This document shows, piece after piece, positions 1,330 through 45,806 of a stretch of 64,000 nucleotides of DNA (position 1 is its first letter; each line of letters opens with the position of its first letter). Position numbers and translations under genes: made by a program. The notes beneath the pieces are model-generated. The model did not search any database. It was not told the origin of the DNA and saw nothing but the letters and a program-made list of their open reading frames with translations. Source of the DNA: an uncultured Gemmatimonadaceae bacterium (lineage in GTDB: Bacteria > Gemmatimonadota > Gemmatimonadetes > Gemmatimonadales > Gemmatimonadaceae); contig CAWFQK010000007.1 of assembly GCA_963817955.1 (NCBI GenBank), positions 1 through 64,000 of the forward strand, given 5' to 3'.

Positions 1330-1338
1330 CCGTTGCCA

Positions 1339-4300: not shown

Positions 4301-4398
4301 ACGTGGTGAAGATTCGGCCGCCGATGCCGTTCAACGAGGTGGATGCGGACCGATTGGTTGAAGTGCTCGACGAGGCGATCGTGGAGCTCCCGGTTTGA
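1339..4398 (+). CDS. Fusion: APH/hydroxylysine-kinase-like phosphotransferase + M23-like domain + class III PLP aminotransferase/phospho-lyase
   Basis: HGDLNDHN and DFGD kinase motifs; HIGLD, YGHL and PHLH M23 motifs; [18 protein letters not shown] and MGKPLGNG aminotransferase III motifs. Confidence 0.9.
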
Positions 4399-4402
4399 AC
4401 GG

Positions 4403-4446
4403 ACCGGCGCCCTCATGACTTTTGCGAAAGTCATGAGGGCGCCGGT
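4403..4446. terminator. Hairpin between convergent genes, probably a bidirectional terminator
   Basis: 20-bp perfect stem ACCGGCGCCCTCATGACTTT-TGCG-AAAGTCATGAGGGCGCCGGT. Confidence 0.7.
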
Positions 4447-4476
4447 TCACCAATCCAGCGTCTTCCCGCACCTCAG

Positions 4477-5955
4477 TTAATACCGGTACAACTCCGGCTT
4501 GTACGGCCCTTCCACCGGAACGCCAATGTACGCGGCCTGCTCCGTTGACAGTTCCGTCAACCGCGCGCCCAGCTTGCCAAGGTGCAGCCGCGCCACCTTT
4601 TCATCGAGATATTTCGGCAGCACGTACACTTTCGTCTCGTACTGGCCGGTGTTGCCGAACAGCTCGATCTGCGCCATCACCTGATTGGTGAAGCTCGACG
4701 ACATCACGAAGCTCGGATGGCCGGTGGCACAACCGAGATTCATGAGTCTTCCCTCAGCGAGGATCATCACACTGTGGCCGTCGGGGAAGACGTACTCGTC
4801 GTACTGCGGCTTGATGTTGATGCGCGTGATCCCCTTCACCTTCTTCAGGCCGGCCATGTCGATCTCATTGTCGAAGTGGCCGATGTTTCCGACGATCGCC
4901 TTGTCCTTCATCTTCGTCATGGAGGCGGCGGTAATGATGTTGAAGTTGCCGGTTGCCGTGATGAAGATGTCGGCGGTCGAGACGACGTCGTCGAGCGTCA
5001 CGACCTGATAGCCAGCCATGCACGCCTGCAGCGCGCAGATCGGATCGATCTCCGTGATCACGACGCGAGCGCCCTGGCCGCGGAGCGCTTCTGCACACCC
5101 CTTGCCCACTTCGCCGTAGCCGAGGACCACTGCCAGCTTGCCGGCGATCATGACGTCGGTGGCGCGATTGAGGCCGTCGATCACCGAGTGACGACAGCCG
5201 TAGATGTTGTCGAACTTCGACTTCGTCACCGAGTCGTTGACGTTGATGGCCGGAAAGAGAAGCGTGCCGGCTTTCATCATCTCATACAGGCGATGCACGC
5301 CCGTCGTCGTCTCTTCCGTTACGCCCTTGATGTCGGCGGCGACTTTCGTCCAGCGGCCTGGATTCCGCTCTGACTCCTGGCGCAGCAGATCGAGAATGAC
5401 CCCCCATTCTTCCGGGTCATTCTTGTCATCGAACGCGGGAATCTTGCCCGCCTTCTCGAATTCGGCGCCCTTGTGAACCAGGAGCGTGGCGTCGCCGCCA
5501 TCGTCGAGGAGCATGTTCGGGCCTTGTCCACTGGGCCACATCAGCGCCTGTTCGGTGCACCACCAGTACTCTTCGAGCGTCTCGCCCTTCCAGGCGAACA
5601 CCGGCACGCCCTTCGGTTCGTTCGGCGTTCCCGTGCGCCCCACTGCGGCGGCGGCGGCGGCATGATCCTGTGTCGAGAAGATGTTGCACGAGACCCAGCG
5701 CACGTCGGCGCCGAGGTCGACAAGCGTCTCGATGAGCACCGCGGTCTGCACCGTCATGTGCAGCGATCCCATGATGCGCGCGCCCGCGAGCGGTGATTTG
5801 CCCTTGTACTCCTCGCGGATCGCCATCAGGCCCGGCATCTCTTGCTCGGCGAGGCGAATTTCCTTGCGACCGAACTCCGCCAGAGACAGGTCGGCGACCT
5901 TGAATGGCGGACGGTCATTGGTTTGCGACTGGTCGATCAACTCGGCGACACCCAT
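4477..5955 (-). CDS. ahcY: Adenosylhomocysteinase
   Basis: [54 protein letters not shown]-terminal YRY. Confidence 0.98.
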
Positions 5956-5985
5956 TGCGATTCCCTGGAAGAAGTGAAGTGCCTA

Positions 5986-6936
5986 CTACTCACTGCGTCG
6001 TGCGCTCGCGACAAACAAACTGGGTCCCTTCGCGTCAGGATCGTCGGGAAGTGGACGGTATCGACAGCCGGTGAATCCGGCGGTATGCAGCCATTGCTTG
6101 ACTTGCTCGCCGTCGAAGCCTTGCCACACGTGGCCGAGCTGGACGACGTATTCCACACGGTCGTGCGACATCAGATCGACGACGAGCAACCGTCCATTCG
6201 GCTTGAGCACCCGCCAGATCTCGCCCATGGCCTTGGCGGGATCGGTGATGAAGTGTGCGACGAGAAAAAGTACTGCGGCGTCGAGGGTGCAATCGTCGAT
6301 CGGCAGCGCCTCGATGGTGCCCTCGCGGAAATCGATGTTGCCAAATGCCGAGAGTCGCGCTTTCGCGGCGTTGAGCATCGGGCCCGATTCGTCGACGGCA
6401 ATGACTCGATCGACGCATGGCGCCAGCGCTTCGGCAATGTGCCCCGTGCCGCACCCGAAATCGCCGATCACCCAGCGCTCGTCGAGCAGATCGAGCAGCG
6501 CCAGCAGATCGGTGCGCGCGCCGATCATGTTGGTGCGCATCTTGTCCCAGAGGTCGGCGGCGTTCAGGAAGAAGAGCTGTGCCTTGTCGCGCCGTTTGCC
6601 GAGCACGCTCACCGCCCGCCGCGTATCCTGCGACGCGCCGACTGCGCTCGAGACCTGCGTGCGCACCACGGCCCACAACTGGCGCGTTGCCTCGTCGAGC
6701 TGCGTGGGCACCATCTTGTAGAAGCGGCTCGTGCCATCGCCGCGTGCGATCAGCCATCCGTCGTCGGCGAGAAGCTTGAGGTGCCGGCTCACCGTGGACT
6801 GCGGGAGCTGAAGGATGGAACACAGTTCCCCGACCGTCAGTTCGTGGCGGTCGAGCAGCAGCAGGATCCGGCTCCTCGTCGGTTCGGCGAGGGTGCTGAG
6901 GCGATCCAGGACGTTGAATCGAGGGGCGGTGGCCAT
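5986..6936 (-). CDS. ArsR HTH + SAM-methyltransferase-fold regulator (SahR/SamR/AhcR type)
   Basis: N-terminal ArsR HTH (QSTVSRHLKLL), DFGCGTG motif I; directly upstream of ahcY; start taken as MATAPRFN. Confidence 0.88.
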   Translation of the reverse strand: MATAPRFNVLDRLSTLAEPTRSRILLLLDRHELTVGELCSILQLPQSTVSRHLKLLADDGWLIARGDGTSRFYKMVPTQLDEATRQLWAVVRTQVSSAVGASQDTRRAVSVLGKRRDKAQLFFLNAADLWDKMRTNMIGARTDLLALLDLLDERWVIGDFGCGTGHIAEALAPCVDRVIAVDESGPMLNAAKARLSAFGNIDFREGTIEALPIDDCTLDAAVLFLVAHFITDPAKAMGEIWRVLKPNGRLLVVDLMSHDRVEYVVQLGHVWQGFDGEQVKQWLHTAGFTGCRYRPLPDDPDAKGPSLFVASARRSE

Positions 6937-6938
6937 AT

Positions 6939-6987
6939 ATCCGTATATCCGGATCGAATGATAGCCGCCGGCACTCCGCCCTGTCAA
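6939..6987 (-). promoter_or_regulatory. sigma70 promoter with overlapping palindromic operator for the regulator-ahcY operon
   Basis: Minus strand TTGACA (6987-6982), 18 bp, TATCAT (6963-6958); palindrome ATCCG-N6-CGGAT at 6939-6954 over the predicted start site. Confidence 0.7.
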
Positions 6988-7088
6988 CCGCCTCGCATGC
7001 GCCGAGCGTTCCCACCCAAACCGGTTCCTCGTCCAGCGAGGTGCCTGTTTCTTTAGTTGATTATTCGGGTCCAACCTGGAGCAAACAC

Positions 7089-9146
7089 ATGAAACGCCCG
7101 CTCGCCCATGTGGCCACCGCAGTGGTCGCCATTGCCCTATCCAGCAGCATCGCTGCCGCACAACAACGATCCGTTCCCGTGTTCAACAAAGCGGACATGG
7201 ACACGACCTGTGCCGCCTGTACCGATTTCTATGAGTACGCCAATGGCGGCTGGCTGAAGAACGCCAAGATTCCGGCCGACAAGACGAGCATCAGCAGCTT
7301 CAGCACGCTGTCCGAGCACAACATGACCGTGGCGCATACGGTCATGCAGGACGATTCGGCCGCGGTCAAGGCAGGCAAGGCGAAGACCGGCACGGAGCAG
7401 TGGAAGATCGGCGCATACTACAGCGCCTGTATGGACACGGTCGCGATCGACGCGCTTGGCACGAAGCCCTTGCAGCCGACGTTCGACGCGATCGCCGGCA
7501 TCCGATCGCCCGCTGATCTCGTGCGCCTGTTTGGCTCGAACGAGCGGCGCGGCGGCATGACGCCGTTCGGCGTCAATCCCGGTGCGGATCCCAAGAACAG
7601 CACCGAGACGATCGTGTCGGCGAGTCAGGGCGGTCTGGGATTGCCTGAACGGGAGTACTACTTCCGTGCTGACCAGCATTCGCAGGACATTCGGAAGGAA
7701 TACGTCGCGCACGTCGCGCGGACACTGGTGCTCTCGGGCGAGCCCGCCGGCCAGGCGAGCCAGGACGCTGACCGCGTCATGGCGCTCGAGACAGCGCTCG
7801 CCGGCGCAGCGATGCCGCGCAACGCGATGCGTGACCCGAACGCGCTCTATCACAAGATGCCCATTGCCGACTTCTCGGCAATGACGCCGCACATCGACTG
7901 GCGCGCCTATCTCAATCAGGTCGGCGGCAAGGCGGCGACGGTGATCAACGTGCGTCAGCCAAGTTTCTTCAAGGCGCTCGACTCGCTCATCGCGACGGTG
8001 CCGCTCGACAATTGGAAGGCGTACCTCCGCTGGCGCGCGACCAACGGCGGTGCGGCCTTGCTCGGTTCGCAGTTCGCGGATGAGGAATTCCGTTTCGCCA
8101 AAGTCATGCGTGGTGTCGAGCAGCCGGAACCGCGCTGGCGTGCCTGCTACTCCGCGACGAACGGCGCGCTCGGCTGGGCGGTGGGGCACGAGTATGTAGC
8201 GCGTACGTTCACACCAGCCGCGCGGGCGCGCGCGGCGACGATGGTCGATAACCTCGTCAGTTCGTTGCGCGTTCGCATTCAGGGACTCGACTGGATGAGC
8301 GCCGCGACGAAGACGCAGGCGACGACCAAGCTCAACGCGTTCCTGCGCAAAGTCGCGTACCCCGACAAGTGGCGTGACTATTCGTCGCTGCAGGTGAAGC
8401 AGGGCGCGTATTTCGTGAACGCGACGGCGGCGGCGCAGTGGAACCAGAAACGCTCGTGGGAGCGTCTCGGCAAGCCGGTCGATCGCACGGAGTGGTCGAT
8501 GACGCCGCCAACGGTGAACGCGTCGTACAGTTCGTCGCTCAACCAGATCCAGTTCCCGGCGGGCATTCTCGCGCCGCCGTTCTTCGATCCGAACGCCGAC
8601 GACGCCGTGAACTACGGCGGTCTCGGTGCGGTGATCGGACATGAGATGTCGCACGGCTTCGACGACCAGGGCCGCCAGTTCGACGCCAAGGGCAACCTGC
8701 GCGACTGGTGGACGCCAGAGGATGCCGCGAAGTACAAGGCGTCGGCACAGAAGATCATCGATCAGTACACCTCCTACACGGTCCTCGACAGCGCAACGCA
8801 CGTGAACGGTTCGGCGACGCTGGGCGAGAACATTGGCGATTTTGGTGGTCTGACGGTGGCCTACTACGCCATGGAGAATGCGCTGAAGCAGAAGGGCCCC
8901 GCGGCGCGGCAGAAGCTCGAAGGCTTCACGCCGGAGCAGCGGTTCTTCCTGAGTTGGGCCCGCGTGTGGCGAGAGGTTCAGCGGCCGGAAGCTGAGCGTC
9001 TACAGGTCAACACGAATCCGCATTCGCCGGGCAAGTGGCGGGTGAATGGACCGCTCAGCATCATGCCCGAATTCGCGAAGGCATTTGGTTGCAAAGACGG
9101 CGATGCACTGGTCCGCGCCGAAGACCTGCGCGCAAAGATCTGGTAG
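7089..9146 (+). CDS. M13 family (neprilysin/PepO-like) zinc endopeptidase, secreted
   Basis: Signal peptide MKRPLAH...; DFYEYANGGW, VNASY, HEMSH, GENIGD, HSP motifs. Confidence 0.95.
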   Translation: MKRPLAHVATAVVAIALSSSIAAAQQRSVPVFNKADMDTTCAACTDFYEYANGGWLKNAKIPADKTSISSFSTLSEHNMTVAHTVMQDDSAAVKAGKAKTGTEQWKIGAYYSACMDTVAIDALGTKPLQPTFDAIAGIRSPADLVRLFGSNERRGGMTPFGVNPGADPKNSTETIVSASQGGLGLPEREYYFRADQHSQDIRKEYVAHVARTLVLSGEPAGQASQDADRVMALETALAGAAMPRNAMRDPNALYHKMPIADFSAMTPHIDWRAYLNQVGGKAATVINVRQPSFFKALDSLIATVPLDNWKAYLRWRATNGGAALLGSQFADEEFRFAKVMRGVEQPEPRWRACYSATNGALGWAVGHEYVARTFTPAARARAATMVDNLVSSLRVRIQGLDWMSAATKTQATTKLNAFLRKVAYPDKWRDYSSLQVKQGAYFVNATAAAQWNQKRSWERLGKPVDRTEWSMTPPTVNASYSSSLNQIQFPAGILAPPFFDPNADDAVNYGGLGAVIGHEMSHGFDDQGRQFDAKGNLRDWWTPEDAAKYKASAQKIIDQYTSYTVLDSATHVNGSATLGENIGDFGGLTVAYYAMENALKQKGPAARQKLEGFTPEQRFFLSWARVWREVQRPEAERLQVNTNPHSPGKWRVNGPLSIMPEFAKAFGCKDGDALVRAEDLRAKIW

Positions 9147-9164
9147 GCGCTCGAGGACGTGAAG

Positions 9165-9201
9165 ACAAAGAAGCCCGCGCACCCGCGCGGGCTTCTTTGT
9201 T
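9165..9201. terminator. Intrinsic terminator
   Basis: ACAAAGAAGCCCGCGC-ACCC-GCGCGGGCTTCTTTGT. Confidence 0.8.
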
Positions 9202-9202
9202 T

Positions 9203-9276
9203 GGGACACGGTGGTGAGACACGGGACACGGGACAGCGAGACACGCGATGCCTGTCATCCTGAGCGAAGCGAAGGA
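9203..9276 (+). repeat. GGGACAC heptamer units joined to a REP-like TGCCTGTCATCCTGAGCGAAGCGAAGGA
   Basis: Same composite occurs in reverse at 45821-45875; the REP-like part starts again at 63985. Confidence 0.75.
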
Positions 9277-9414
9277 GCGGTGGCCTCAACCGGAGCGCGC
9301 AGAGGAACGCGGGAGTAACTCTCATCCCAATGCGTTGGCTGACGCCGTCGTGACACATCGATGCGCCGGTGCCTGTGGTCTTGCGCAGACATGCTGAAAA
9401 AAACATATTCCCTC

Positions 9415-9795
9415 ATGGCCGCCGACGATGGCGCGCAGGAATCGTTTAAACCCGTCGAGTGGATCGCCTCGGCCCGTGACGATCTCCGCGCGATGCCCGA
9501 GGAGGTCCAGGACCTGTTTGGGTATGCGCTTTACGAGGCGCAACGCGGGAAGCGTCACCCACGCGCCAAGCTGGTCAAGGGCAATCTGCGCGGCCTCGTT
9601 GAGCTCGTCGACGATTTCGATGGCAACACATATCGGGCGATCTATACCGTCAAACTGGCCGGCGTCGTCTACGTGCTCCACGTCTTTCAGAAGAAATCCA
9701 CGCGGGGCATCGCGACGCCGCAACGCGAGATTGCCCTGATCAAAGAGCGATTGCAACGGGCCAAGCGGCATCACGCCGCGCGGGTCGGATCATGA
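9415..9795 (+). CDS. RelE/ParE-superfamily toxin (phage Gp49/DUF891-like)
   Basis: KPVEWIASARDDL...FGYALYEAQRG...TYRAIYTVK...YVLHVFQKKS; precedes an HTH gene; TTGCGC-N-CATATT promoter-like motif just upstream. Confidence 0.9.
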   Translation: MAADDGAQESFKPVEWIASARDDLRAMPEEVQDLFGYALYEAQRGKRHPRAKLVKGNLRGLVELVDDFDGNTYRAIYTVKLAGVVYVLHVFQKKSTRGIATPQREIALIKERLQRAKRHHAARVGS

Positions 9796-9819
9796 GCTTG
9801 AGCGAACGGGAGGGCTGAC

Positions 9820-10179
9820 ATGGCAAAGCGGAAACTACCTGACGACAGCGCGCGAATCGACGCGATCCCGGTCACGAGCGGGAGCGGAAACGTCTTCGCG
9901 GATCTTGGTCTACCGAATCCCGAGGAGCGGCTCGCCAAGGCCCAACTGGCGTCGCGTATCGACGACGTGATCCGCCGTCGGAAGCTCACGCAGCAGCAGG
10001 CGGCGGCGCTCATGGGGATCGATCAACCGAAGGTGTCGCATCTCCTCCATGGGCGCCTGAGTGGCTTTTCAACGCAACGGCTGATCGATTTTCTCAACGC
10101 GCTGGGGCAGGACGTCGAGATCGTCGTCCGGGCTGCACCCCGCTCACGGAAACGTGGCCGGCTGCACGTCGCGGCGTGA
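9820..10179 (+). CDS. XRE-family HTH antitoxin (toxin-first type II TA)
   Basis: SGNVFADLG motif, LTQQQAAALMGIDQPKVS HTH; GGGAGGG SD. Confidence 0.9.
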   Translation: MAKRKLPDDSARIDAIPVTSGSGNVFADLGLPNPEERLAKAQLASRIDDVIRRRKLTQQQAAALMGIDQPKVSHLLHGRLSGFSTQRLIDFLNALGQDVEIVVRAAPRSRKRGRLHVAA

Positions 10180-10486
10180 CCGGAGCGCGGTCGCGCGGGG
10201 TATGCTGGCGAGACCAATCACCCCTCCGCAACCGCGCACGGCAGGGGGAATCATCGGCCGAGCGTGCATCGCACCTCGGCCACTCCCGCAGACCATTACA
10301 GAACGCACAACACGCATCAGTGCGCCAGCAGAGAGGTATCTCCGTCCTCGCGCATGATGTGCGAGCAAGCTGGTGGAGAGAGAGGTCTCTCGCTTGCAGC
10401 TTGGCGGCAGCGCACGCGGCAATGGTCCCGTCCGAAGGCGCCTCTGGTCGCTGGATGCCGCTCATCACTCGGCACTGAGCACGCGT

Positions 10487-10970
10487 GACCAGCCCGACAG
10501 GCGTTTTGCATCCGCCGGCAGCAGATTTGTCTCCCGCGTTGGGAGACTTATTGGTGCGCTCACCTCACTTTCCCATGCACGCGGCAGAGTTTATTCGACG
10601 CGTGCTCGAGTTTCTGCCTCGATTACGAGACTTGCCGTCCGCCGCAGCACATTTGTCGTGCTGGTCAGGGCAGTTCGGGCCGCATCGATCGGCGTTTTCG
10701 CTGTGTCTGTCGCATTAGAGCATCTGGGCAACCTATTTGTGGCCGTCGGTACCGCCCTTCCGATCCGGTCCACCAGAGATCGGCCGATCGTCGGCAGCAT
10801 TCGGCCGGCGCTCGCCGGAGTTGCGTCGGTTCGTAGCGGAGTATCTGGCGGCGTCAGACCAGATTGCGCTGGGCGAACATTCCTTAATGGAGGCGTGACG
10901 GCACTTCAGTCCTGCGGCGTTCCATTTGGTAGAAGGCCCACCCGACATGCTCGCGAGAGGCCAGCGTTCT
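10487..10970. repeat. Degenerate 21-nt periodic array, anchor A-NTT (23 units)
   Basis: Anchor triplets at 10505, 10526, 10547 ... 10967 in exact 21-nt steps; 17 of 23 are NTT and 17 of 23 are preceded by A. Confidence 0.75.
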
Positions 10971-10988
10971 CGGCGGTGTCACGTGGCG

Positions 10989-11303
10989 CGCACGCATCGT
11001 GAGCTACGACGCACGCACGGTGAGCTGACGCGCACGCACGGTGAGCTACGACGCACGCAGAACGTTCAACGACCCACGCCCAACTACTGCCGTCGCACCC
11101 AGCGCGCGACCTGCCCCACGCTCAACCAACTCTGCCCCACACTCCACTATCTCCGGCCCACGGCGCGCCACCTCCCGCCCACGCGCAGAGCGCTCTCGTG
11201 CACTACGCCCCGCCTTTCTCCTACGCTGTGCCATCGCCAACGCACGGCCGGTCTCATTATCTGCACGCCGCACGCGCCGTTGCGCACGCACGGCCATCGT
11301 TGC
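10989..11303. repeat. Degenerate 21-nt periodic array, anchor C-AC (15 units)
   Basis: AC at 10992, 11013 ... 11286 in exact 21-nt steps (15 of 15; 14 are CAC); the first three units are near-identical CGCACGCACGGTGAGCTACGA. Confidence 0.85.
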
Positions 11304-11423
11304 GCACCCGGTAGTGGATTGGAACGATAGTTCTTATAGCTCAGGACGACAACGTACTGTCATCCAATACTCTGCTACGGCCCGCTGGCCGCTACCGTTG
11401 TGTGCTGTGAGTGCCGCACAACG

Positions 11424-11541
11424 CGCAAACGCATAGCTCACCACTGGAACCTCGAACCTCGCCGACCGGTGGGCCGACCGCTACGGAGCCGCCAGCGATA
11501 TCCAGCCGGTCAACACCCGAAGCCCAATCCACGTCGCACCG
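11424..11541 (-). repeat. Dispersed ~120-bp repeat R2, copy 1
   Basis: Aligns by eye with 30202-30318 and 45288-45354. Confidence 0.85.
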
Positions 11542-11570
11542 CCCGAGCTAGTGCCGTTCACGGAAATCGT

Positions 11571-12596
11571 CTATCGCAGTGCCGACTCGAGCCCCTTGAG
11601 ATCGTCGATCACGAGTCCGACGCGTTGCACGACGCGCGTCATGCCGTACGGGCCGTGTGCAGTGAGCGGCTCGCGCAGATCGAGCAATACGTTCGGCGTG
11701 CCGAGAACGGCGCGCAGATAGCCTGGCGTGCCTTTCGCCGGCGCCTTCACGCGGCCATACTCGATCTTCGCAATCTGATCGCGCGGAATGTCGAGCGACC
11801 ACTGCACGCCGGTGCGCACGCGCAGGTAGTCGCGCGTGACGAGCACCGGACGCAATTGCACTGAGCGCGCGAAGCCGAGCAGCCAGACCGCGCCAAACAC
11901 GCTCACCGCGAGGACCGCCAGCGCCAATCGCGGCGCGATCGCCCGCAGCAAGAAGTGCACGGCACATGCCTCGACCACCGATGCGAAGACGAGCGTGTAC
12001 AGGACCGCGGCGAACGCACTTGCCTTGTGGTACGAGAAAGCGCGCGCACCGACCGGCACAAACGGCTTGCGACGCCACGACGCGACGGCGTAGAACAGCA
12101 GCCCGGCTTCCATCGCCATGATGTCGGCAATGCGCGACCGCATCGACGATCCGCCGAGTGCGGCACGAATGCGTTCCGGCACGTCGAGCTCGGCGCCCGC
12201 CGCCGCGAGTTGCTGATGCGTGCGCCGCACCCCGACGATGATAAGCGCCATGACCGCGAGCTCGACGGGAATGCCGAGATACCGGATGTCGCGCACCAGA
12301 TACCGGTAGCCCACGGGCAGCGTGAGCGCCGCCGCAGCGACGCTGGCGATGAACACCGGGAGCGCGCTCCGCAACGCGGCGTGTCCAGGTCGGACGACGA
12401 GGAACCAGTACGCCGCCGTCACGCCCACGGTCAGGTCGAAGCTCGCGGCCATCGCCAACATGGCTGGGTTCTGGGCGAACGCCGGCGAGTGAACGACCGC
12501 GCCATCGATGAGGTACATCAGCAACGCGACAACGACGAACCCGGCCGGCGTGCGGATGCGTTGACGAGGGCCGTGTGGAGCGAGTGTAGCGTGCAT
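11571..12596 (-). CDS. Hypothetical multi-pass membrane protein
   Basis: 341-aa ORF with several hydrophobic segments. Confidence 0.75.
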   Translation of the reverse strand: MHATLAPHGPRQRIRTPAGFVVVALLMYLIDGAVVHSPAFAQNPAMLAMAASFDLTVGVTAAYWFLVVRPGHAALRSALPVFIASVAAAALTLPVGYRYLVRDIRYLGIPVELAVMALIIVGVRRTHQQLAAAGAELDVPERIRAALGGSSMRSRIADIMAMEAGLLFYAVASWRRKPFVPVGARAFSYHKASAFAAVLYTLVFASVVEACAVHFLLRAIAPRLALAVLAVSVFGAVWLLGFARSVQLRPVLVTRDYLRVRTGVQWSLDIPRDQIAKIEYGRVKAPAKGTPGYLRAVLGTPNVLLDLREPLTAHGPYGMTRVVQRVGLVIDDLKGLESALR

Positions 12597-12753
12597 GGAG
12601 CCTCGCGGCGAGAATGGCAGCTTCTGGAAAGCTATCGCCGTCCGGTCTCGGCATACATAACCCGAACACCACGCATGATGTACTCCCGGGTTGCCCTCCG
12701 CCGGGGGAGATAGCCAGTTTCAGGCGTTAACCCACTCACCCAGGGTTCATGAC

Positions 12754-14388
12754 ATGACCAGCAGACGTGATTTCCTCCGTCATACCGGCACCGCGGCCGC
12801 CATCGCGGCGGCCGGAGCAGTGCTTCGGCCCGGGATCGTCGGCGCGCTAGGCGCACAGCCGGTGTATCCGCCAGGCGTCGGTACATTCGAAGAACTGCCA
12901 ATCAAAGAACTCCTCATGGAGGCCCTGAACGCGGCCAAGGCCGCGGGCGCATCGTTCTCTGACGCACGACTCAGCCGGTATCGACAGAGCTTCGTTGGCA
13001 CGCGTGAGAAGCAGATCGTGCAGGTGGGTGATACGGATTCCATTGGCATTGGTGTTCGCGCCCTCGTGAACGGTGCCTGGGGGTTTGCCGCATCACAGAC
13101 ACTGACGCGTGACGGCGTCGTGGCCGCAGCGCGGGAGGCCGCGGCGATCGCCAAGGCGAACCGGATTCCGGGAGCCACACCGGTGACGCTCGCGCCCGCA
13201 CCATCCTATCCGAACGCGACGTGGAAGAGCTCGTTCGAGATCGATCCCTTCACGATTCCAGTTGAGCAGAAGGCGCAGCTCCTGATTGACGCGAACACGG
13301 AATCGATGAAAGTCGCGAATGTGAAATTCGTGAACAGCTTCCTCTTCTTCATCAAGGAAGATCGCAATTACGCGAACACCGACGGATCGCTCATCACACA
13401 GACGATCATTCGGAGTTGGGTGCCCTTCACGGCGACGGCAGTGTCTCCGGACTTCAGCGACTTTCAGTCGCGAAGCAACGTCGTGCAGCCTGCAGGACGA
13501 GGCTGGGAGTACGTCGTCGCGTCCGATCTCGTCGGCAACGCGCGGAAGTGGGGCGAGGAGGCGGCCGAGAAGCTCAAGGCGAAACCGGTCCAGGTGGGTC
13601 GCTACGATCTCGTGCTACATCCGTCGCATCTCTGGCTCACGATTCATGAATCGATCGGACATCCTACCGAGCTCGATCGGGCCATGGGGTACGAAGCCAA
13701 CTACGCGGGCACGAGCTTCGTGTCGCCGCCCGAGAAGGTGCTCGGGACACTCAAGTATGGCTCCGAGATCATGAACATTCAGGGCGACCGCACGCAGGAC
13801 GGCGGCTGCGCCACGATCGGGTGGGACGACGACGGCGTGAAGGCCGAGTCCTTCCTGATCATCAAGAACGGAATCTTCCACGACTATCAAACCAGCCGCG
13901 AGCAGGCGCCCTGGCTCGCGGACTACTACAAGAAGAACGGCATGCCGGTGAAGTCGCATGGCTGCTGCAACGCCGACAACTGGAGCAGCGTGCAGTTCCA
14001 GCGTATGCCGAATGTCTCACTGCTGCCTGGTGCGCAGGACAAGACGTGGGAGGATCTGATCGCCGCCACCGACAACGGCATCGGCATCGTCGGCGATGGC
14101 TCGTTCTCGATCGATCAACAGCGGTACAACGCGCAGTTCGGCGGGCAGGTCTTCTATGAGATCAAGGGCGGGAAGATCACCGGCATGCTCAAGGACGTCG
14201 CGTACCAGATGCGGACGCCGGACTTCTGGAACTCCATGGACATGATCGGCGGTAAGTCGAGCTACATGATGGGCGCCAGCTTCTTCGATGGAAAAGGCCA
14301 ACCGGGCCAGATCGGATCGGTGAGCCACGGTTGCGTGCCAGCGCGCTTCCGCAACATCAACGTCATCAATACGGGGAGCAAATCATGA
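12754..14388 (+). CDS. tldD: TldD/PmbA family metalloprotease, TldD-like, with Tat signal
   Basis: SRRDFL twin-arginine motif; HESIGH zinc motif; RMPN; GKGQPGQ. Confidence 0.9.
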   Translation: MTSRRDFLRHTGTAAAIAAAGAVLRPGIVGALGAQPVYPPGVGTFEELPIKELLMEALNAAKAAGASFSDARLSRYRQSFVGTREKQIVQVGDTDSIGIGVRALVNGAWGFAASQTLTRDGVVAAAREAAAIAKANRIPGATPVTLAPAPSYPNATWKSSFEIDPFTIPVEQKAQLLIDANTESMKVANVKFVNSFLFFIKEDRNYANTDGSLITQTIIRSWVPFTATAVSPDFSDFQSRSNVVQPAGRGWEYVVASDLVGNARKWGEEAAEKLKAKPVQVGRYDLVLHPSHLWLTIHESIGHPTELDRAMGYEANYAGTSFVSPPEKVLGTLKYGSEIMNIQGDRTQDGGCATIGWDDDGVKAESFLIIKNGIFHDYQTSREQAPWLADYYKKNGMPVKSHGCCNADNWSSVQFQRMPNVSLLPGAQDKTWEDLIAATDNGIGIVGDGSFSIDQQRYNAQFGGQVFYEIKGGKITGMLKDVAYQMRTPDFWNSMDMIGGKSSYMMGASFFDGKGQPGQIGSVSHGCVPARFRNINVINTGSKS

Positions 14389-15737
14389 GCGCCGTCGATC
14401 CCCGCGTGATGTCGCGCGAACAAGCACAGGCGCTCGTGGAGCGCACGATCAAGCTGTCGAAAGCCGACGCCGTGCAGGTGAACGTCGGCGGCGGCTACAA
14501 CGCCAACATCCGCTTCGCCGACAATAGAATCTCCACCGCCGGCGGTGTGTCCACCGCGACGCTGAACATCGAGAGCGCGTTCGGCCCGAAGCACGCGGTG
14601 GTTTCGACGAATGACTTCTCTGACGAGAATCTCGAGCGCGCCGTGCGACAATCCGAGGCGCTGGCGAAGCTCGCGCCGAATGATCCCGAGGCAATGCCGT
14701 TACTGGGGCCGCAGCAATACGAAGCCGTGAACACCTATTTCGACGCGACGGCAAAGCTCGGTCCAGAGGGCCGCGCCGAGGCGGCGCGCATGGCCATCGA
14801 TCCGTGCAAGGCGGCGGGCGACCTCAAGGCAGCTGGTTTTCTGATAACCGGAATCGGTGCCAGTGCGGTGGGCAACAACAAGGGCTTGTTCGCGTATCAG
14901 TCGGGCACCTCGTCGAATTACACGCTCACGGTGCGCACCGCGGACGGGACGGGTTCCGGTTGGGCCGGCGCCGATCACCCCGACTGGTCGCAGATCGACG
15001 TCAAAGGCGTCGCGCAATGCGCGATCGAGAAGTCGCATCTGTCGCGCAACCCGGTGGCAATCGAGCCTGGGCGCTACACGGTGATTCTCGAGCCGCAGGC
15101 AGTCGGCGACCTCGTGCAGCTCCTCGCGTTTGCACTCGACGCGCGCTCGGCGGACGAAGGGCGCAGCGCCTTCTCCAAGCAGGGTGGCGGAACGAAAGTT
15201 GGCGAGAAGATCGTCGATGAGCGCGTGACACTCTTCTCGGATCCCGCCGATTCGCAGCTACTGACCAACGCGTTCGACGGGCAGGGATTGCCGGCACATC
15301 GCGTTTCGTGGATCGAGAACGGCGTGCTCAAGCGCCTCACGTACTCGCGCTTCTGGGCCCAGAAGAAGAATCAGCAGCCGGATGCCGGCACGAACGCCGT
15401 GAAGTTCTCTGGCGGGACGCAGACGACGGAAGATCTCATCAAGTCCACACCCCGCGGCATTCTCGTGACGCGACTCTGGTACTTGCGGCCGGTCGATCCG
15501 CGCACCGTGCTGTATACCGGCCTCACGCGCGACGGCACGTTCCTGATCGAGGACGGAAAGATCTCCAAGGCCGTGAAGAACTTCAGGTTCAACGAGTCGC
15601 CGCTGTTCATGCTGAACAACCTCGACGCGATCGGCCGCGCGGTGCGCGTGGCAGGCACCGAGGCGGGCGGCGATGTCGTCATGCCGTCGCTCAAGGTTCG
15701 TGACTTCAACTTCACCAGTCTGTCGGACGCGGTGTGA
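14385..15737 (+). CDS. TldD/PmbA family partner subunit (TldE-like)
   Basis: ATGA overlap with tldD; EPGRYTVILEP, FDGQG, TGLTRDG, NFRFN motifs; no HExxxH. Confidence 0.88.
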   Translation: MSAVDPRVMSREQAQALVERTIKLSKADAVQVNVGGGYNANIRFADNRISTAGGVSTATLNIESAFGPKHAVVSTNDFSDENLERAVRQSEALAKLAPNDPEAMPLLGPQQYEAVNTYFDATAKLGPEGRAEAARMAIDPCKAAGDLKAAGFLITGIGASAVGNNKGLFAYQSGTSSNYTLTVRTADGTGSGWAGADHPDWSQIDVKGVAQCAIEKSHLSRNPVAIEPGRYTVILEPQAVGDLVQLLAFALDARSADEGRSAFSKQGGGTKVGEKIVDERVTLFSDPADSQLLTNAFDGQGLPAHRVSWIENGVLKRLTYSRFWAQKKNQQPDAGTNAVKFSGGTQTTEDLIKSTPRGILVTRLWYLRPVDPRTVLYTGLTRDGTFLIEDGKISKAVKNFRFNESPLFMLNNLDAIGRAVRVAGTEAGGDVVMPSLKVRDFNFTSLSDAV

Positions 15738-15777
15738 CGGTGTAAGCGCTGGCGAGCAAGTATCCCGGATGTCACAC

Positions 15778-17028
15778 CTACGGCAGGTGGACGATCTTGC
15801 CCATGAACAACACCGTCCCGCTGAGTCGCTCGCGAATGACGAACACATACGGACTGTCTACACGCATCACTGTGGCGACGGGCACCGCCGTCACGACGAC
15901 TCCGCCGATCGTGACCGCGGCGGCTTCGGTGCCTTCTTCGTCGATTGCCACGAACGTGTTCTGTCGTACCGTGGAGATCTCGAGCTCATGACCACGCGGC
16001 GACATGGGCGTGAAGTCCGCAGCACTGGTGAACGCCGCGTGCATTCCGAGCGCCTGGAGATCAGGGATCAATGCGCGTTTCCACGCCAGGGTTACGCGCG
16101 GCAGATACAGGTCTACGTATTGGGAATGAAACGAGGCAGCAAGCTGGTTCCAGCTTTCCGGTGACAGCGACAGGGCAACGGACTGTACGTCTGCGCCGAG
16201 CTTGGGCAGCAGTACGGTCATCGTGAACGATGAGTCACCGTACGCGAGATCGACTGCTTGGAACTTGTCAGTCTCGGCATACGCCATGTACTGCGTGCGG
16301 TGCATCAAGCGCGCGCTCTGATCGCCGCCAACAGAGTGAAATGGGGCATCGATCGTCTTGTTGGAATCGAACCGTTCGCGCCAACTGCCCTTGAAGTACA
16401 TGGCGTTGAGCAAGTACATCACGTCGTCGGAATGGACGGTGTCGAGCATGGACGGGATACGCCCGTTCGTCTTGGCATTCACCCATCCGTTCACTGCCGC
16501 GAGCGTGCCCGGCACGTCGTCGAAGTTCTGGGCAGTGACGTCGGCGTCGAAGTACGACGCGGCGCCGGTCAAGAAGGTCTGGTTGAACGGGAACCCGCTG
16601 CGATAGAAGATCGCGTTGGTGATCTGCATCGTCGTGGACGCGTCCAACGATGTCAGTAGCCCAATGAGCGACTTGTAGCCGCTGTCGATGGCGCCGAGTG
16701 AGGCAGTGTCGAACCGCAGCGCCGACCGCGTCTCGTCGAAGGTCTGTCCGGCTGCCCCGTTCAGCGCCATCCCCAGAGCGAACGATGCGCTGAGTGGTGA
16801 AACGAAGACATTGTCGCCGGTCTGGTCGGCGTTGATCGTCCGGAACAGATCGAAGGAGAACGCGCTGGCGGCGCCGAGTACGTCGCGCTCTGCTGGCGAG
16901 AGGGCGCGGGGCAGTGCAGTACGCGCGGCGCTGGTCCCATTGGACGGTGCCGTGGCGGAATGCCCGGAGCAGGCGGCGATGCCGATACAGACGACGCTCA
17001 CGGACAGGATGCGACCGAATCCCAGCAT
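15778..17028 (-). CDS. Serpin family protease inhibitor, lipoprotein
   Basis: Lipobox IAA-C; NVFVSPLS, NAMYFKGSW, hinge DEEGTEAAA, C-terminal VDSPYVFVIRE...LFMG. Confidence 0.93.
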   Translation of the reverse strand: MLGFGRILSVSVVCIGIAACSGHSATAPSNGTSAARTALPRALSPAERDVLGAASAFSFDLFRTINADQTGDNVFVSPLSASFALGMALNGAAGQTFDETRSALRFDTASLGAIDSGYKSLIGLLTSLDASTTMQITNAIFYRSGFPFNQTFLTGAASYFDADVTAQNFDDVPGTLAAVNGWVNAKTNGRIPSMLDTVHSDDVMYLLNAMYFKGSWRERFDSNKTIDAPFHSVGGDQSARLMHRTQYMAYAETDKFQAVDLAYGDSSFTMTVLLPKLGADVQSVALSLSPESWNQLAASFHSQYVDLYLPRVTLAWKRALIPDLQALGMHAAFTSAADFTPMSPRGHELEISTVRQNTFVAIDEEGTEAAAVTIGGVVVTAVPVATVMRVDSPYVFVIRERLSGTVLFMGKIVHLP

Positions 17029-45433: not shown

Positions 45434-45806
45434 GCGCAACAGCCTTTTAACGCAGAGGACGCAGAGAACTGCAAGAGGTCGCAGAGAACTGCAAGCGAAC
45501 TGCAAGAGAACTGCAAGAGAACTGCAAAAGAGAACTGCAAAAGAGAACTGCAAAAGAGAACTGAAAAAGGAAACTGCAAAGAGAACTGTAATCGTACGGA
45601 AGAGGGAAGCGCGTATCGGTGGAATGAATCGTGATTGCCAAGTCCACAATCATTCCGCCTATCGTTGACGATCCCGACCTGGGCGATACCATCGGAGCGT
45701 CACGACGGCATCAGCCAAGACTTCCAGGCGAGACAATCCTTCGCGGTCCTCTGCAGTTCTCTGCGTTCTCCTGCAGTTCTCTGCGACCTCTGCGTTCAAA
45801 GGCTGG
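45434..45806 (-). mobile_element. MITE-like element R1, copy B (inverted relative to copy A)
   Basis: Imperfect terminal inverted repeats, about ten GAGAACTGCA-type units on the long arm, same ~150-bp core. Confidence 0.7.

Follow-up and report, generated by a model that had tools for sequence, protein, structure and literature searches.

A cryptic 21-nucleotide phased tract in a Gemmatimonadaceae genome, and a class of period-conserved arrays upstream of a paralogous gene family

Plasmid iterons (19-22 bp, theta plasmids) and the centromere-like site parC of R1 are made up of 3-10 near-identical sites that follow a defined consensus and have a Rep or Par gene linked to them, and a spacing of 21-22 bp is typical of iterons and of the TnsB sites at the ends of Tn7. 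In coding DNA, regions for coiled-coil (heptad) proteins, such as chemoreceptor genes, carry a latent 21-nt periodicity. Upstream of hmw1A and hmw2A in Haemophilus influenzae, 7-bp repeats grade the expression of surface proteins; these repeats are perfect, and their copy number is altered by slippage. Evenly spaced motifs also serve attenuation by TRAP (11 (G/U)AG triplets) and HutP, with a spacing of 5 nt and about 6-11 motifs. CRISPR arrays alternate repeats of 23-50 nt with spacers of 26-72 nt, and the STRR heptamers of cyanobacteria are built of near-identical units.

The tract described here shares a regular beat with all of these and differs from each in how little sequence accompanies it. 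It lies in a window of 64,000 nucleotides, the whole stretch of DNA that was analysed (positions 1 to 64,000 of contig CAWFQK010000007.1 of an uncultured Gemmatimonadaceae bacterium). A sequence-only reading had described an xTT anchor recurring every 21 nt without an indel from 10505 to 10967, and had proposed as explanations a phased protein-binding or bending track, an array of fixed-length units, or a decayed heptad gene.

The 21-nt tract in the window

The anchor was indeed borne out. All 23 triplets were found at 10505+21k, and xTT itself is present in 17 of the 23 units. T occupies the second base of the anchor in 20/23 units and the third base likewise in 20/23; an A stands immediately 5' of the triplet in 17/23, a purine six bases 5' of it in 22/23 (A in 15), and C or G two bases 5' of it in 22 of 24 rows. 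On the + strand the anchor reads R....SA.TT, the remaining positions of each unit (about 15) being unconstrained. Column information is bimodal, with 1.6-1.8 bits for TT, about 1 bit for the two A columns and 0.05-0.27 bits for the other columns.

The period is highly significant. The anchor phase takes 17 of the 38 TT dinucleotides of 10487-10970 (binomial P = 2.3e-13, corrected for 21 phases), and at period 21 the TT indicator has a power of 1.63. The maxima were 0.67 among 5000 mononucleotide shuffles and 0.93 among 5000 codon shuffles, so that neither set contained a shuffle reaching the observed value. Among periods 12-33, 21 alone stands out (3.28 vs about 0.7), with smaller scores at periods 14 and 28, both of which share the 7-nt harmonic, and T shows a second peak at 10.5 nt. 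Across the 4.53-Mb genome, divided into 215,727 windows, the tract has the second strongest 21-nt A/T periodicity. TRF, at a minimum score of 30, nevertheless reported no repeat in 10505-10970, just as had been guessed of tandem-repeat finders. The further argument that the conserved A, which falls on a third codon position of the open ORF 10373-11002, points to a constraint at the nucleotide level also stands, the frame and the codon position being as described.

The overt repeat (Table 1) is a direct continuation of the cryptic part with the 21-nt register kept, and the whole periodic tract extends from 10505 to about 11190, or some 0.7 kb. Units alike in the manner of a minisatellite were found by TRF in the overt repeat and, within the decaying part, at 11111-11162 (2.5 copies, 77% matches), and nowhere else in the tract. 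The + strand is C-rich over 10971-11190 (GC skew -0.255), and the skew of the cryptic part is 0.007. Terminator-like sites in the scanned region numbered 3 vs 2.2 expected from shuffles, which is not above chance, and the same region held no sigma-70-like promoter site.

Table 1. Features of the periodic tract and of its flanks (positions in the window).
Feature	Position	Strand	Remarks
higB-like (Gp49, PF05973) and higA-like (HTH_37) toxin-antitoxin pair	9361..10179	+	Left flank
Cryptic 21-nt phased array	10505..10970	none	23 units, 0 indels
Hairpin, 8-bp stem, then TTATTGG	10529..10547	+	Inside second unit; sole terminator-like site in gap
Overt 21-nt tandem repeat	10989..11059	none	TRF: unit CGCACGCACGGTGAGCTACGA, 3.4 copies, 88% matches
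Decaying 21-nt units, anchor C.CACGC	11060..11190	none	Row alignment, TRF, GC skew
Most A/T-rich patch past the right end of the array	11320..11350	none	Weak likeness to A/T-rich element at gene-distal end of multi-copy AAP arrays
Copy of dispersed repeat, about 100-150 nt	11397..11545	none	114 loci in genome
341-aa ORF, no Pfam family	11571..12596	-	Right flank; 3' end faces array; syntenic with TldD in two relatives

The tract sits in a species-specific insertion beside higBA, between convergent genes. In two relatives the membrane gene adjoins TldD, and other genes replace the array and higBA. The dispersed repeat on the right is probably context, outside the array proper. The ORFs scanned between 1333 and 17028 comprise metabolic genes, peptidases, a serpin and higBA. 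In 40 related genomes the tract had no DNA relative save the dispersed repeat and one 50-nt match in genome G013. A scan of metagenome contigs for exact 26-mers gave 0 matches. Near-identical pieces of the tract do occur in four DNA runs (for example 10715-10912, with one difference), all of them short soil-metagenome contigs of one study; they may derive from the source sample of the genome itself and so lend the tract no independent support. The only length variant in these runs was a gap of 8 nt at 10430, in a single contig of low depth.

A genome-wide class of arrays and its link to the AAP family

The genome holds many arrays of this period. TRF returned 252 rows of period 21 among 1922, together with 70 of period 18, 29 of period 24 and 279 of period 7, and the genome is also rich in 7-, 21-, 42- and 63-nt repeats, including arrays in intergenic DNA. 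A lag-21 identity threshold of 0.40 caught ordinary genes, and only regions at 0.5 or above were used. The genome has 47 strong arrays, 46 after merging; under a crude gene model, 43 of the 47 are less than half genic. Nineteen of the 46 lie directly upstream of a gene of one paralogous family, named AAP here, and 26 have no adjacent AAP gene, so that orphans are common. The earlier suggestion of an array of fixed-length units is supported: 21-nt arrays that preserve the period but not the letters are a habit of this genome and of its lineage, the tract is one of them, and many others stand upstream of AAP genes.

Other arrays of the class do not behave as genes. The median triplet power was 1.60 in 41 arrays vs 7.29 in their genes, the array being lower in 38/41, and all six frames are closed by stops in 8 of 19 strong arrays. 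Between paralogous arrays, anchor columns change about 10-fold less than the others (0.02 vs about 0.3) with no codon-like pattern. No consensus common to the arrays was found: anchors and sequences differ from locus to locus, and the period alone is shared. A PWM comparison of the window array with 19 arrays gave equal scores in both orientations. The window array does have the architecture of the class, namely a tract of 0.4-1.4 kb that combines overt repeats with cryptic, anchor-only units without a shift of register, and a like architecture was seen in the rows of arrays L019, L023, L024, L153 and L156. A true heptad-coding example exists in the same genome at C5:124760-125378; it reads ELETTNEELQSTNE and lies wholly inside a predicted gene. 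As a side observation, a search of this 94%-complete genome detected no Piwi domain, and the idea that 21-nt units feed guide RNAs to an Argonaute was dropped on that ground.

AAP is a Gemmatimonadota-restricted family of about 250 aa with no assigned function, present in 53 of 301 sampled Gemmatimonadota genomes (a tally that takes in one unpublished genome, G089). Its AF2 model is an all-helical bundle (pLDDT 81.7). Foldseek found no match to this model in the PDB at E <= 0.001 (best E 0.12) and gave no hint of a binding role, and a search of the ESM Atlas returned only unnamed Gemmatimonadota clusters. In the BLAST table of the present genome, AAP and its array form a multi-copy unit of 2.1-2.3 kb in at least 22 places. 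Arrays were scored by an all-harmonics statistic, the power at the fundamental alone being poor for several anchor columns (18/43 vs 4/43). Of the 22 AAP loci of this genome, 19 are preceded by an array that exceeds the 99th percentile of the genome; the control (gene plus downstream) gave 2 of 22. The figures were 25/42 vs 0/42 matched controls in 12 other genomes of the same genus and 14/18 vs 0/18 matched controls in other genera, from two families. The best period among 12-33 was 21 in 30/43 and 15/18 of the AAP upstream regions, the arrays typically occupying 0.4-1.4 kb directly upstream of the genes. The link between period 21 and AAP thus holds across two bacterial families. In the window itself no such gene is found: the AAP HMM had no match on contig C7, and a relaxed search of 9000-11700 returned only negative bit scores. 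The window copy is an orphan, with neither an AAP gene nor a remnant, and, with no AAP gene beside it, its membership of the class is judged from architecture alone.

A proposed DNA platform and its alternatives

We favour, with a rough probability of 0.4, the view that the tract is an orphan from a class of phased 21-bp arrays serving as multi-site platforms for a cooperative binder. This account takes as established the period, the lack of coding signatures, the class and the link to AAP across two families. From a mechanistic point of view, the arrays would grow by in-register duplication of 21-nt units. Selection would then preserve the register, together with a few A/T-rich anchor bases in each unit, and let the other bases drift. 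The binder would sit once per two helix turns, on one face of the DNA, and the platform would control the adjacent gene; the window copy, which has no AAP gene, would be a relic or might act on its own. A similar beat, carried by unrelated letters, recurs upstream of AAP in many relatives, and the spacing itself therefore looks like the signal. A length of 21 bp makes two turns of the DNA helix, and the phased protein-binding track proposed earlier may be regarded as the most economical mechanism.

The bending track proposed alongside it fared less well. Under a wedge model with provisional parameters, the window array is tentatively predicted to be curved: its end-to-end/contour ratio of 0.784 falls at the 1.3rd percentile for windows of the genome, and the value was reached by 2 of 200 controls with rotated units. 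With the same model, a family-B array, L019 and L023 were not curved, and the support for a bending track is weak and does not extend to the class. That predicted curvature is not common to the class counts against the platform, as do the want of a DNA relative of the tract in the 40 related genomes and the fold of AAP, which gives no hint of a binder. So does the triplet power of the window array, which at 3.1-4.0 is intermediate and not low, although the anchor comb must supply a part of it, 21 being divisible by 3.

In a further and slightly more tentative proposal, spacing, and not sequence, would be the information in a cis element. Some 20-60 units of exactly 21 nt would precede a lineage-specific multi-copy family in two Gemmatimonadota families. 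Their reader would be a protein polymerising along the nucleic acid in steps of 21 nt, and the units could diverge freely provided that the register and one small A/T-rich contact in each unit are kept; the window copy would be free-standing. The rod-like AAP protein is one candidate for a reader with such a step.

The same class may instead be read as RNA, an account that we find rather unlikely. The array would then be transcribed into a lengthy leader or non-coding RNA with little structure, and a protein would bind or cleave its motifs, spaced 21 nt apart; at AAP loci this would control read-through into the gene, and in the window it would yield an orphan transcript. Strand asymmetry supports it, AAP upstream arrays being C-rich (C>G) on the gene strand at 39/43 and 32/41 loci. 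Arrays of the genus end 30-100 nt from the Shine-Dalgarno sequence and start codon, and several arrays have A/T-rich, promoter-like segments on their distal side. A terminator-like hairpin stands 50-110 nt before the AAP start codon at 13/74 loci on the gene strand vs 6/74 on the opposite strand, although this excess is weak. The C-rich gene strand, the arrays near the start codon and the hairpins together fit a leader better than a DNA platform. The anchor A-N-T-T of the + strand also resembles the preference of RNase E, R-N|W-U-U. Against this stand several observations. No RNA run carrying 10300-11400 was found; folding is ordinary (MFE z = -1.0 on the + strand and -1.5 on the - strand); and Rfam 15 gave no match, its single row being a chance-level mir-337 outside the array (E 0.96). 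In the window, the cryptic part lacks the skew noted above, and its two halves imply opposite sense strands. The two arrays that were read in the sister family end about 210 nt short of the gene, far enough for a promoter to fit in between. Finally, RNA offers no physical ground for the number 21, whereas on DNA it corresponds to two turns.

That the tract is a relic without function, a 21-nt minisatellite grown by slippage or unequal exchange and now decaying, is in our judgement improbable. Its register would persist through changes of whole units, and its anchors would be survivors of chance or of mutational bias. In keeping with such a history, the cryptic part has overt repeats next to it, repeats of 7, 21, 42 and 63 nt abound in the genome, the location is a species-specific insertion between convergent genes, and no AAP gene is near, as in the 26 orphans among the 46 strong arrays. 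Neutral decay, however, would wear all columns equally, whereas the information per column is bimodal, and in a genome of 64% G+C the A/T bases would be expected to erode first. Nor would decay readily leave 23 saturated units without an indel. The roughly 10-fold slower change of the anchor columns in multi-copy arrays and the survival of the period-21 link to AAP across two families, despite the turnover of sequence, likewise speak against a relic.

Very little room is left for a heptad-repeat protein gene or a recent pseudogene, that is, for the decayed heptad gene of the sequence-only reading. Such a gene could take two forms. In the first, ORF 10373-11002, which is open throughout its 209 codons and repeats x-x-x-x-x-R-[FLV], would be translated. 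In the second, the frame of 10485, with [DEHQ]-[LF] and a small or hydrophobic residue four positions on, would be a coiled-coil gene broken by two stops. In this frame L/F/I/M/Y stands at position 1 and mostly A/L/V/S at position 5, and such d/a-like spacing would also account for the 10.5-nt harmonic of T. The multi-copy arrays, moreover, have one clean L-x-x-x-L-x-x heptad frame, open for 430-670 codons in 4 copies, and this frame scored 39.2 bits against the coiled-coil family DUF7310, just short of the cut-off of 40. Codon usage tells against both forms: the score per codon is negative in all six frames (-0.32 to -0.72, the best frame being at -0.32), whereas real genes of the genome score 0.29 +/- 0.10 (1st percentile -0.05), and GC3 outside the anchors is 0.69-0.73 vs a gene median of 0.79. 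The ORF matched no Pfam or NCBIfam family and had no homologue in 5.8 billion proteins or in 1.84 billion representatives. The NTT frame has 0 stops, and so do 8.6% of 20,000 column-preserving shuffles, T being confined to the anchor columns. The TTN frame (that of 10485) contains TAG at 10716, TGA at 10896 and many prolines. Paralogous arrays are separated by numerous gaps of 1 nt without an excess at third positions, and the stops in all six frames of 8 of the 19 related strong arrays point the same way. No frame of the tract looks coding, and 10505-11190 is apparently non-coding.

A mobile-element end, or a site of replication or partition, with transposase, Rep or ParB-type sites about 21-22 bp apart, can be set aside as barely credible: the spacing matches that of iterons and TnsB sites, the insertion that holds the tract also carries higBA, and AAP with its array is a multi-copy unit, but such systems use 3-10 near-identical sites and not 23-60 units sharing 4-6 bases, no transposase, Rep or Par gene was present among the ORFs scanned between 1333 and 17028, and no inverted partner array was seen.

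Significance and comparison with known systems

The tract was passed over by repeat finders and gene callers, yet it is among the two most periodic places of its genome. It led to a rule that spans two bacterial families, in which the hundreds of bases before AAP change in sequence but stay in a 21-nt register. A period conserved without its sequence is, to our knowledge, rare in bacteria, and it implies a molecular ruler, either the DNA helix itself or a filament-forming binder. The best reading is that these arrays constitute a previously undescribed class of period-conserved cis elements; full-text literature searches turned up no account of such arrays, including for STRR. Confirmation would open a way to the function of the AAP family and would add a new kind of regulatory or structural element to a soil phylum that has been little studied. 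It would also be grounds for searching genomes for cryptic periodicity besides sequence repeats. Even if the arrays were neutral minisatellites, they would still account for a large set of gaps that carry no annotation in these genomes.

Among known systems, iterons and centromere-like arrays resemble the arrays described here in being non-coding direct repeats about two helical turns apart, with proteins on one face, beside the gene that they control. Here, by contrast, 23-60 units share 4-6 bases, the consensus varies by locus, and the arrays are chromosomal, with 46 strong ones in a genome and no Rep or Par gene among the scanned ORFs. Heptad coding regions have in common with the tract the 21-nt period, the 10.5-nt harmonic of T and, in two frames, hydrophobic codons at the anchors; the tract differs from them in having neither codon bias nor a homologue, in the stops of its heptad-like frame and in its conserved third positions. 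The regular conserved elements with unrelated sequence between them recall CRISPR arrays, from which the tract is set apart by its architecture, the conserved part being 4-6 scattered bases per 21-nt unit. TRAP and HutP targets likewise place short motifs at fixed spacing in a leader, here a putative one, and a terminator-like hairpin precedes the gene at the 13/74 loci mentioned above; the spacing here is however 21 nt, with up to about 60 units. As for STRR and minisatellites, this genome is indeed rich in heptamers (the 279 TRF rows of period 7) and in intergenic 21-, 42- and 63-nt arrays, whereas cryptic, anchor-only arrays tied to one gene family set the present class apart. The repeats of hmw1A and hmw2A, finally, like these arrays separate upstream signals from the beginning of genes in a multi-copy, variable family, and the unit here is a multiple of 7 nt; unlike them, most units here are too diverged to slip, and the register is nevertheless kept.

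Periodicity and setting of the window array

Written in 21-nt rows, the array displayed all 23 triplets that the sequence-only reading had listed between 10505 and 10967, in a single register and with zero indels. The anchor took the form xTT in 17 of the 23 units, with T at the second base in 20/23 and at the third in 20/23, and was immediately preceded by A in 17/23; a purine stood six bases 5' of the triplet in 22/23 units (A in 15), and C or G two bases 5' of it in 22 of 24 rows, while the non-anchor columns carried 0.05-0.27 bits apiece. TT dinucleotides occupied the anchor phase in 17 of 38 cases in the region (binomial P = 2.3e-13, corrected for 21 phases). The periodicity withstood comparison with shuffled controls, since its TT-indicator power of 1.63 at period 21 was reached in 0 of 5000 mononucleotide shuffles (highest value 0.67) and 0 of 5000 codon shuffles (highest value 0.93). 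T alone peaked at 10.5 nt. When periods 12-33 were scanned, 21 was the sole standout (3.28 vs about 0.7), and the array ranked second for 21-nt A/T periodicity among 215,727 windows scanned across the 4.53-Mb genome. As had been anticipated of tandem-repeat finders, TRF (minimum score 30) made no call in 10505-10970; overt 21-nt repeats lie directly behind this cryptic part, so that the periodic tract extends to about 11190. Weaker 21-nt A/T periodicity was also seen at about 358-820 of the window (power 1.4-1.5, the 99th percentile within the window being 1.0), on the upstream side of a 1021-aa ORF (1333-4398) in which an APH phosphotransferase, Peptidase_M23 and a class-III aminotransferase are fused.

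The tract occupies most of a 1.4-kb gap between a higBA-like toxin-antitoxin pair and a 341-aa ORF. The dispersed repeat on its right was found within 500 nt of 11/46 strong 21-nt arrays of the genome vs 47/743 other gaps of at least 400 nt, and GACACGG-type heptamer repeats stand in front of other copies of it. Between an M13 peptidase gene and higB, at 9200-9300, lies another short dispersed repeat, which has about 11 further copies in the genome. In two relatives the membrane gene still adjoins TldD and other genes stand in the place of the array and higBA; as no DNA relatives of the tract were found in 40 related genomes either, the region is read as a species-specific insertion. Near-identical pieces of the tract occur in short soil-metagenome contigs, possibly from the same sample as the genome assembly.

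A lineage-wide link between 21-nt arrays and the AAP family

Whole-genome TRF gave 1922 rows, overlapping rows possibly describing one array, including 252 of period 21, 70 of period 42, 15 of period 63, 279 of period 7 (GACACGG type), 70 of period 18 and 29 of period 24. Merging the 21-, 42-, 63- and 84-nt rows yielded 44 regions of at least 150 nt (20.8 kb in total), and lag-21 self-identity of at least 0.5 yielded 47 regions, or 46 once merged; 43 of the 47 were less than half genic according to our own crude gene model, whose 3030 ORFs cover 75% of the genome. At 45454-45519 of the window and at many genome loci, two families of 20-nt tandem repeats, with units like AGAGGACGCAGAGAACTGCA and GCCTGTCATCCTGAGCGAAG, co-occur.

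Two array sub-families form, with an adjoining gene, a 2.1-2.3-kb multi-copy unit present in at least 22 places according to the BLAST table. This gene, a 252-aa ORF whose start lies, by eye, four nucleotides past GGAGG, belongs to a paralogous family found downstream of many 21-nt arrays and here named AAP. Some copies of the unit are 95% identical in protein; several AAP copies carry truncations or frameshifts. No family was found for AAP in Pfam or NCBIfam; five relatives were retrieved from a collection of 5.8 billion proteins, and the ESM Atlas search gave exclusively unnamed Gemmatimonadota clusters. In its AF2 model (pLDDT 81.7), AAP is predicted to fold as an all-helical bundle that includes two helices of roughly 55 residues and carries a disordered tail rich in Pro and Thr; Foldseek returned nothing from the PDB for this model at E <= 0.001. 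An HMM built from 20 members detected 22 loci in this genome, none of them on the window's contig. In a profile scan whose tallies include the unpublished genome G089, AAP was present in 53 of 301 genomes of the phylum, with up to 12 copies per genome: 6/69 from other genera of the window's family, 46/125 from the sister family and 0/106 from ten other families. Judged from these 301 genomes, AAP is apparently restricted to two Gemmatimonadota families.

The link between arrays and AAP was evaluated with an all-harmonics period-21 statistic in 420-nt windows (genome 99th percentile 13.11; window array 28.6), comparing the 1.5 kb 5' of each gene with an equal-length control made of the gene and its downstream DNA. 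In this genome, 19/22 upstream regions exceeded 13.11 vs 2/22 controls. For 12 other genomes of the genus, 44 near-full-length matches were taken, partial and weak ones being left out; 25/42 upstream regions vs 0/42 controls exceeded the threshold (L121 and L124 excluded for short flanks), and 21 was the best period between 12 and 33 at 30 of the 43 loci with at least 600 nt upstream. For other genera of the own and sister families, 20 matches reaching the protein N-terminus were picked blind to their flanks, and the corresponding values were 14/18 vs 0/18, with 21 as best period in 15/18 (17/20 in all); the two loci excluded for short flanks scored 23.6 with best period 21 (L139) and 7.8 with best period 13 (L158). 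A lineage-wide link between 21-nt arrays and the AAP family is thus shown.

The period, not the sequence, is common to these arrays: 19 strong arrays gave 19 different consensus patterns. They are not coding, with stops in all six frames in 8/19, a frame open on the gene strand in 9/19 and on the opposite strand in 3, and a median triplet power of 1.60 (41 arrays) vs 7.29 in their genes, the array being lower than its gene in 38/41. Between paralogous copies, change at anchor columns was about 10-fold below that at other columns (0.02 vs about 0.3), 1-nt gaps were common, and substitutions by position mod 3 (0.19/0.26/0.24 and 0.22/0.30/0.23, against 0.18/0.18/0.25 in the adjacent gene) were not codon-like, a comparison that is indicative only because BLAST alignments are noisy within repeats.

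Opposite the AAP strand, a near-perfect L-x-x-x-L-x-x heptad ('ELRCRLG...') was observed at C5:100994-102016, C4:1541836-1542827, C2:997401-998445 and C4:1120623-1121915; its frame is open for 430-670 codons, has poor codon usage, is shifted by 20-nt units and, at 39.2 bits, fell just short of the cut-off of 40 for the coiled-coil family DUF7310. In several species, a conserved element of about 50 nt with TCTACTTATTACTTAT lies about 1.0-1.1 kb 5' of AAP, at the far limit of the upstream region (L020, L120, L122, L123, L125 and L126); similar motifs, TAGTAGGGG / TTAGAGGGG, were seen close to other arrays. The element could be a lineage-specific promoter.

The window array matches the class in period, length, mixture of overt and cryptic units and absence of a coding signature. 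The AAP HMM found no gene or remnant beside it, making it an orphan, as are 26 of the genome's 46 strong arrays. In the multi-copy arrays the TT anchors lie on the strand opposite AAP, and by this rule a lost AAP gene would sit left of the window array, where higBA now stands. The overt part at 10971-11190, being rich in C on the + strand, points to the opposite orientation, so the two cues conflict.

Features of the window array, its surroundings and related loci (bare positions are those of the window; C3, C4, C5 and C8 are other contigs of the genome)
Feature	Location	Strand	Remarks
higB-like (Gp49/DUF891, E 1e-20) and higA-like (HTH_37, E 5e-30)	9361-10179	+	left flank
Overt 21-nt repeat	10989-11059		TRF, 3.4 copies
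Overt 21-nt repeat	11111-11162		TRF, 2.5 copies
Dispersed repeat, ~100-150 nt	11397-11545		114 genome loci
341-aa ORF, no Pfam family	11571-12596	-	right flank, 3' end toward array
Overt array, example	C3:118426-118860
Cryptic array, example	C8:39981-40716		~35 TTC-anchored units, no indel
Multi-copy unit, AAP gene and its array	C8:38600-40900; C5:100100-102200		at least 20 further places
AAP gene	C4:1540985-1541740 (L010:1986-2741)	-	21 further loci in the genome
Another orphan array	C4:1663763-1664624		also between convergent genes

Possible origin and role of the arrays

The results show that the 21-nt register is strict, that a few positions, mostly A/T, are conserved, and that a coding signal is absent. 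From a mechanistic point of view, the arrays may have grown through in-register duplication, as overt 21-, 42- and 63-nt sub-arrays sit inside them, and register and anchors would then be kept by selection, because neutral decay would not preserve 1.6-1.8 bits in two columns of the window array with fifteen others close to zero. Our preferred reading, with a probability of roughly 0.4, is that of a DNA-level platform: 21 bp corresponds to two turns of the helix, a 10.5-nt harmonic is present in the window array, and a geometric ruler predicts a period that is kept without sequence. The proposal of an array of fixed-length units is borne out by the class of 21-nt arrays. Bending, proposed alongside it, is probably not a common property. 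In a wedge-model estimate of curvature, the window array had an end-to-end/contour ratio of 0.784, which ranks at the 1.3rd percentile among windows of the genome, a level reached by 2 of 200 unit-rotated controls, and one overt array was strongly curved, but three others were not.

Action as leader RNA, which we rated nearly equal to the DNA platform, is possible if somewhat doubtful. It is favored by the strand asymmetry of the arrays, mildly C-rich on the gene strand (negative GC skew in 39/43 and 32/41), by their proximity to the start codon (in the genus they reach to within 30-100 nt of the Shine-Dalgarno sequence), and by terminator-like hairpins, found in the 320 nt preceding the start codon at 13/74 loci on the gene strand and at 6/74 on the opposite strand. 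At the two sister-family loci read, the arrays stop about 210 nt upstream of the start. That the window tract is a neutral relic appears unlikely in view of its bimodal columns.

Coding heptads are improbable. The ORF 10373-11002 is indeed open, as reported, yet two of the three + frames are stop-depleted by construction because most T residues fall into the anchor columns, and this frame stayed open in 8.6% of 20,000 shuffles preserving column composition. The heptad-like frame from 10485 ([DEHQ]-[LF], followed at a distance of four positions by a residue that is small or hydrophobic) is proline-rich and interrupted by TAG at 10716 and TGA at 10896. When codon usage was modeled on 617 long, high-GC3 ORFs of the same genome, the six frames scored -0.32 to -0.72 per codon, vs 0.29 +/- 0.10 for in-frame windows of real genes (1st percentile -0.05) and 0.07-0.30 for the neighboring genes. 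Outside the anchor columns, GC3 was 0.73, 0.69 and 0.70 in the three + frames vs a gene median of 0.79. Triplet power was 3.1-4.0, the 5th-25th percentile of genic windows (median 5.80), and part of it must stem from the anchor comb, since 3 divides 21. No translation matched a relevant Pfam or NCBIfam family, the sole row being a sub-threshold low-complexity match of the 10926-11327 piece, and the 209-aa ORF had no homologue among 5.8 billion clustered proteins or among 1.84 billion representatives scanned in full by HMMER. We read the tract as non-coding; negative scores, missing homologues and families, and the stops of the 10485 frame leave the proposed decayed heptad gene a small residual chance. 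Mobile-element or iteron sites are hardly credible; no transposase, Rep or Par gene was found among the ORFs scanned at 1333-17028.

Comparison with known systems

No description of such arrays was found in those parts of the literature reached by a full-text search. The closest parallels are the arrays of iterons and centromeres, tandem repeats close to the promoters of phase-variable surface genes, leaders recognized by oligomeric RNA-binding proteins, and the latent 21-nt periodicity of coiled-coil genes. From each of these four, the 21-nt arrays differ in unit number, in having no shared consensus and in being non-coding; in kind, they are like known phased repeat arrays.
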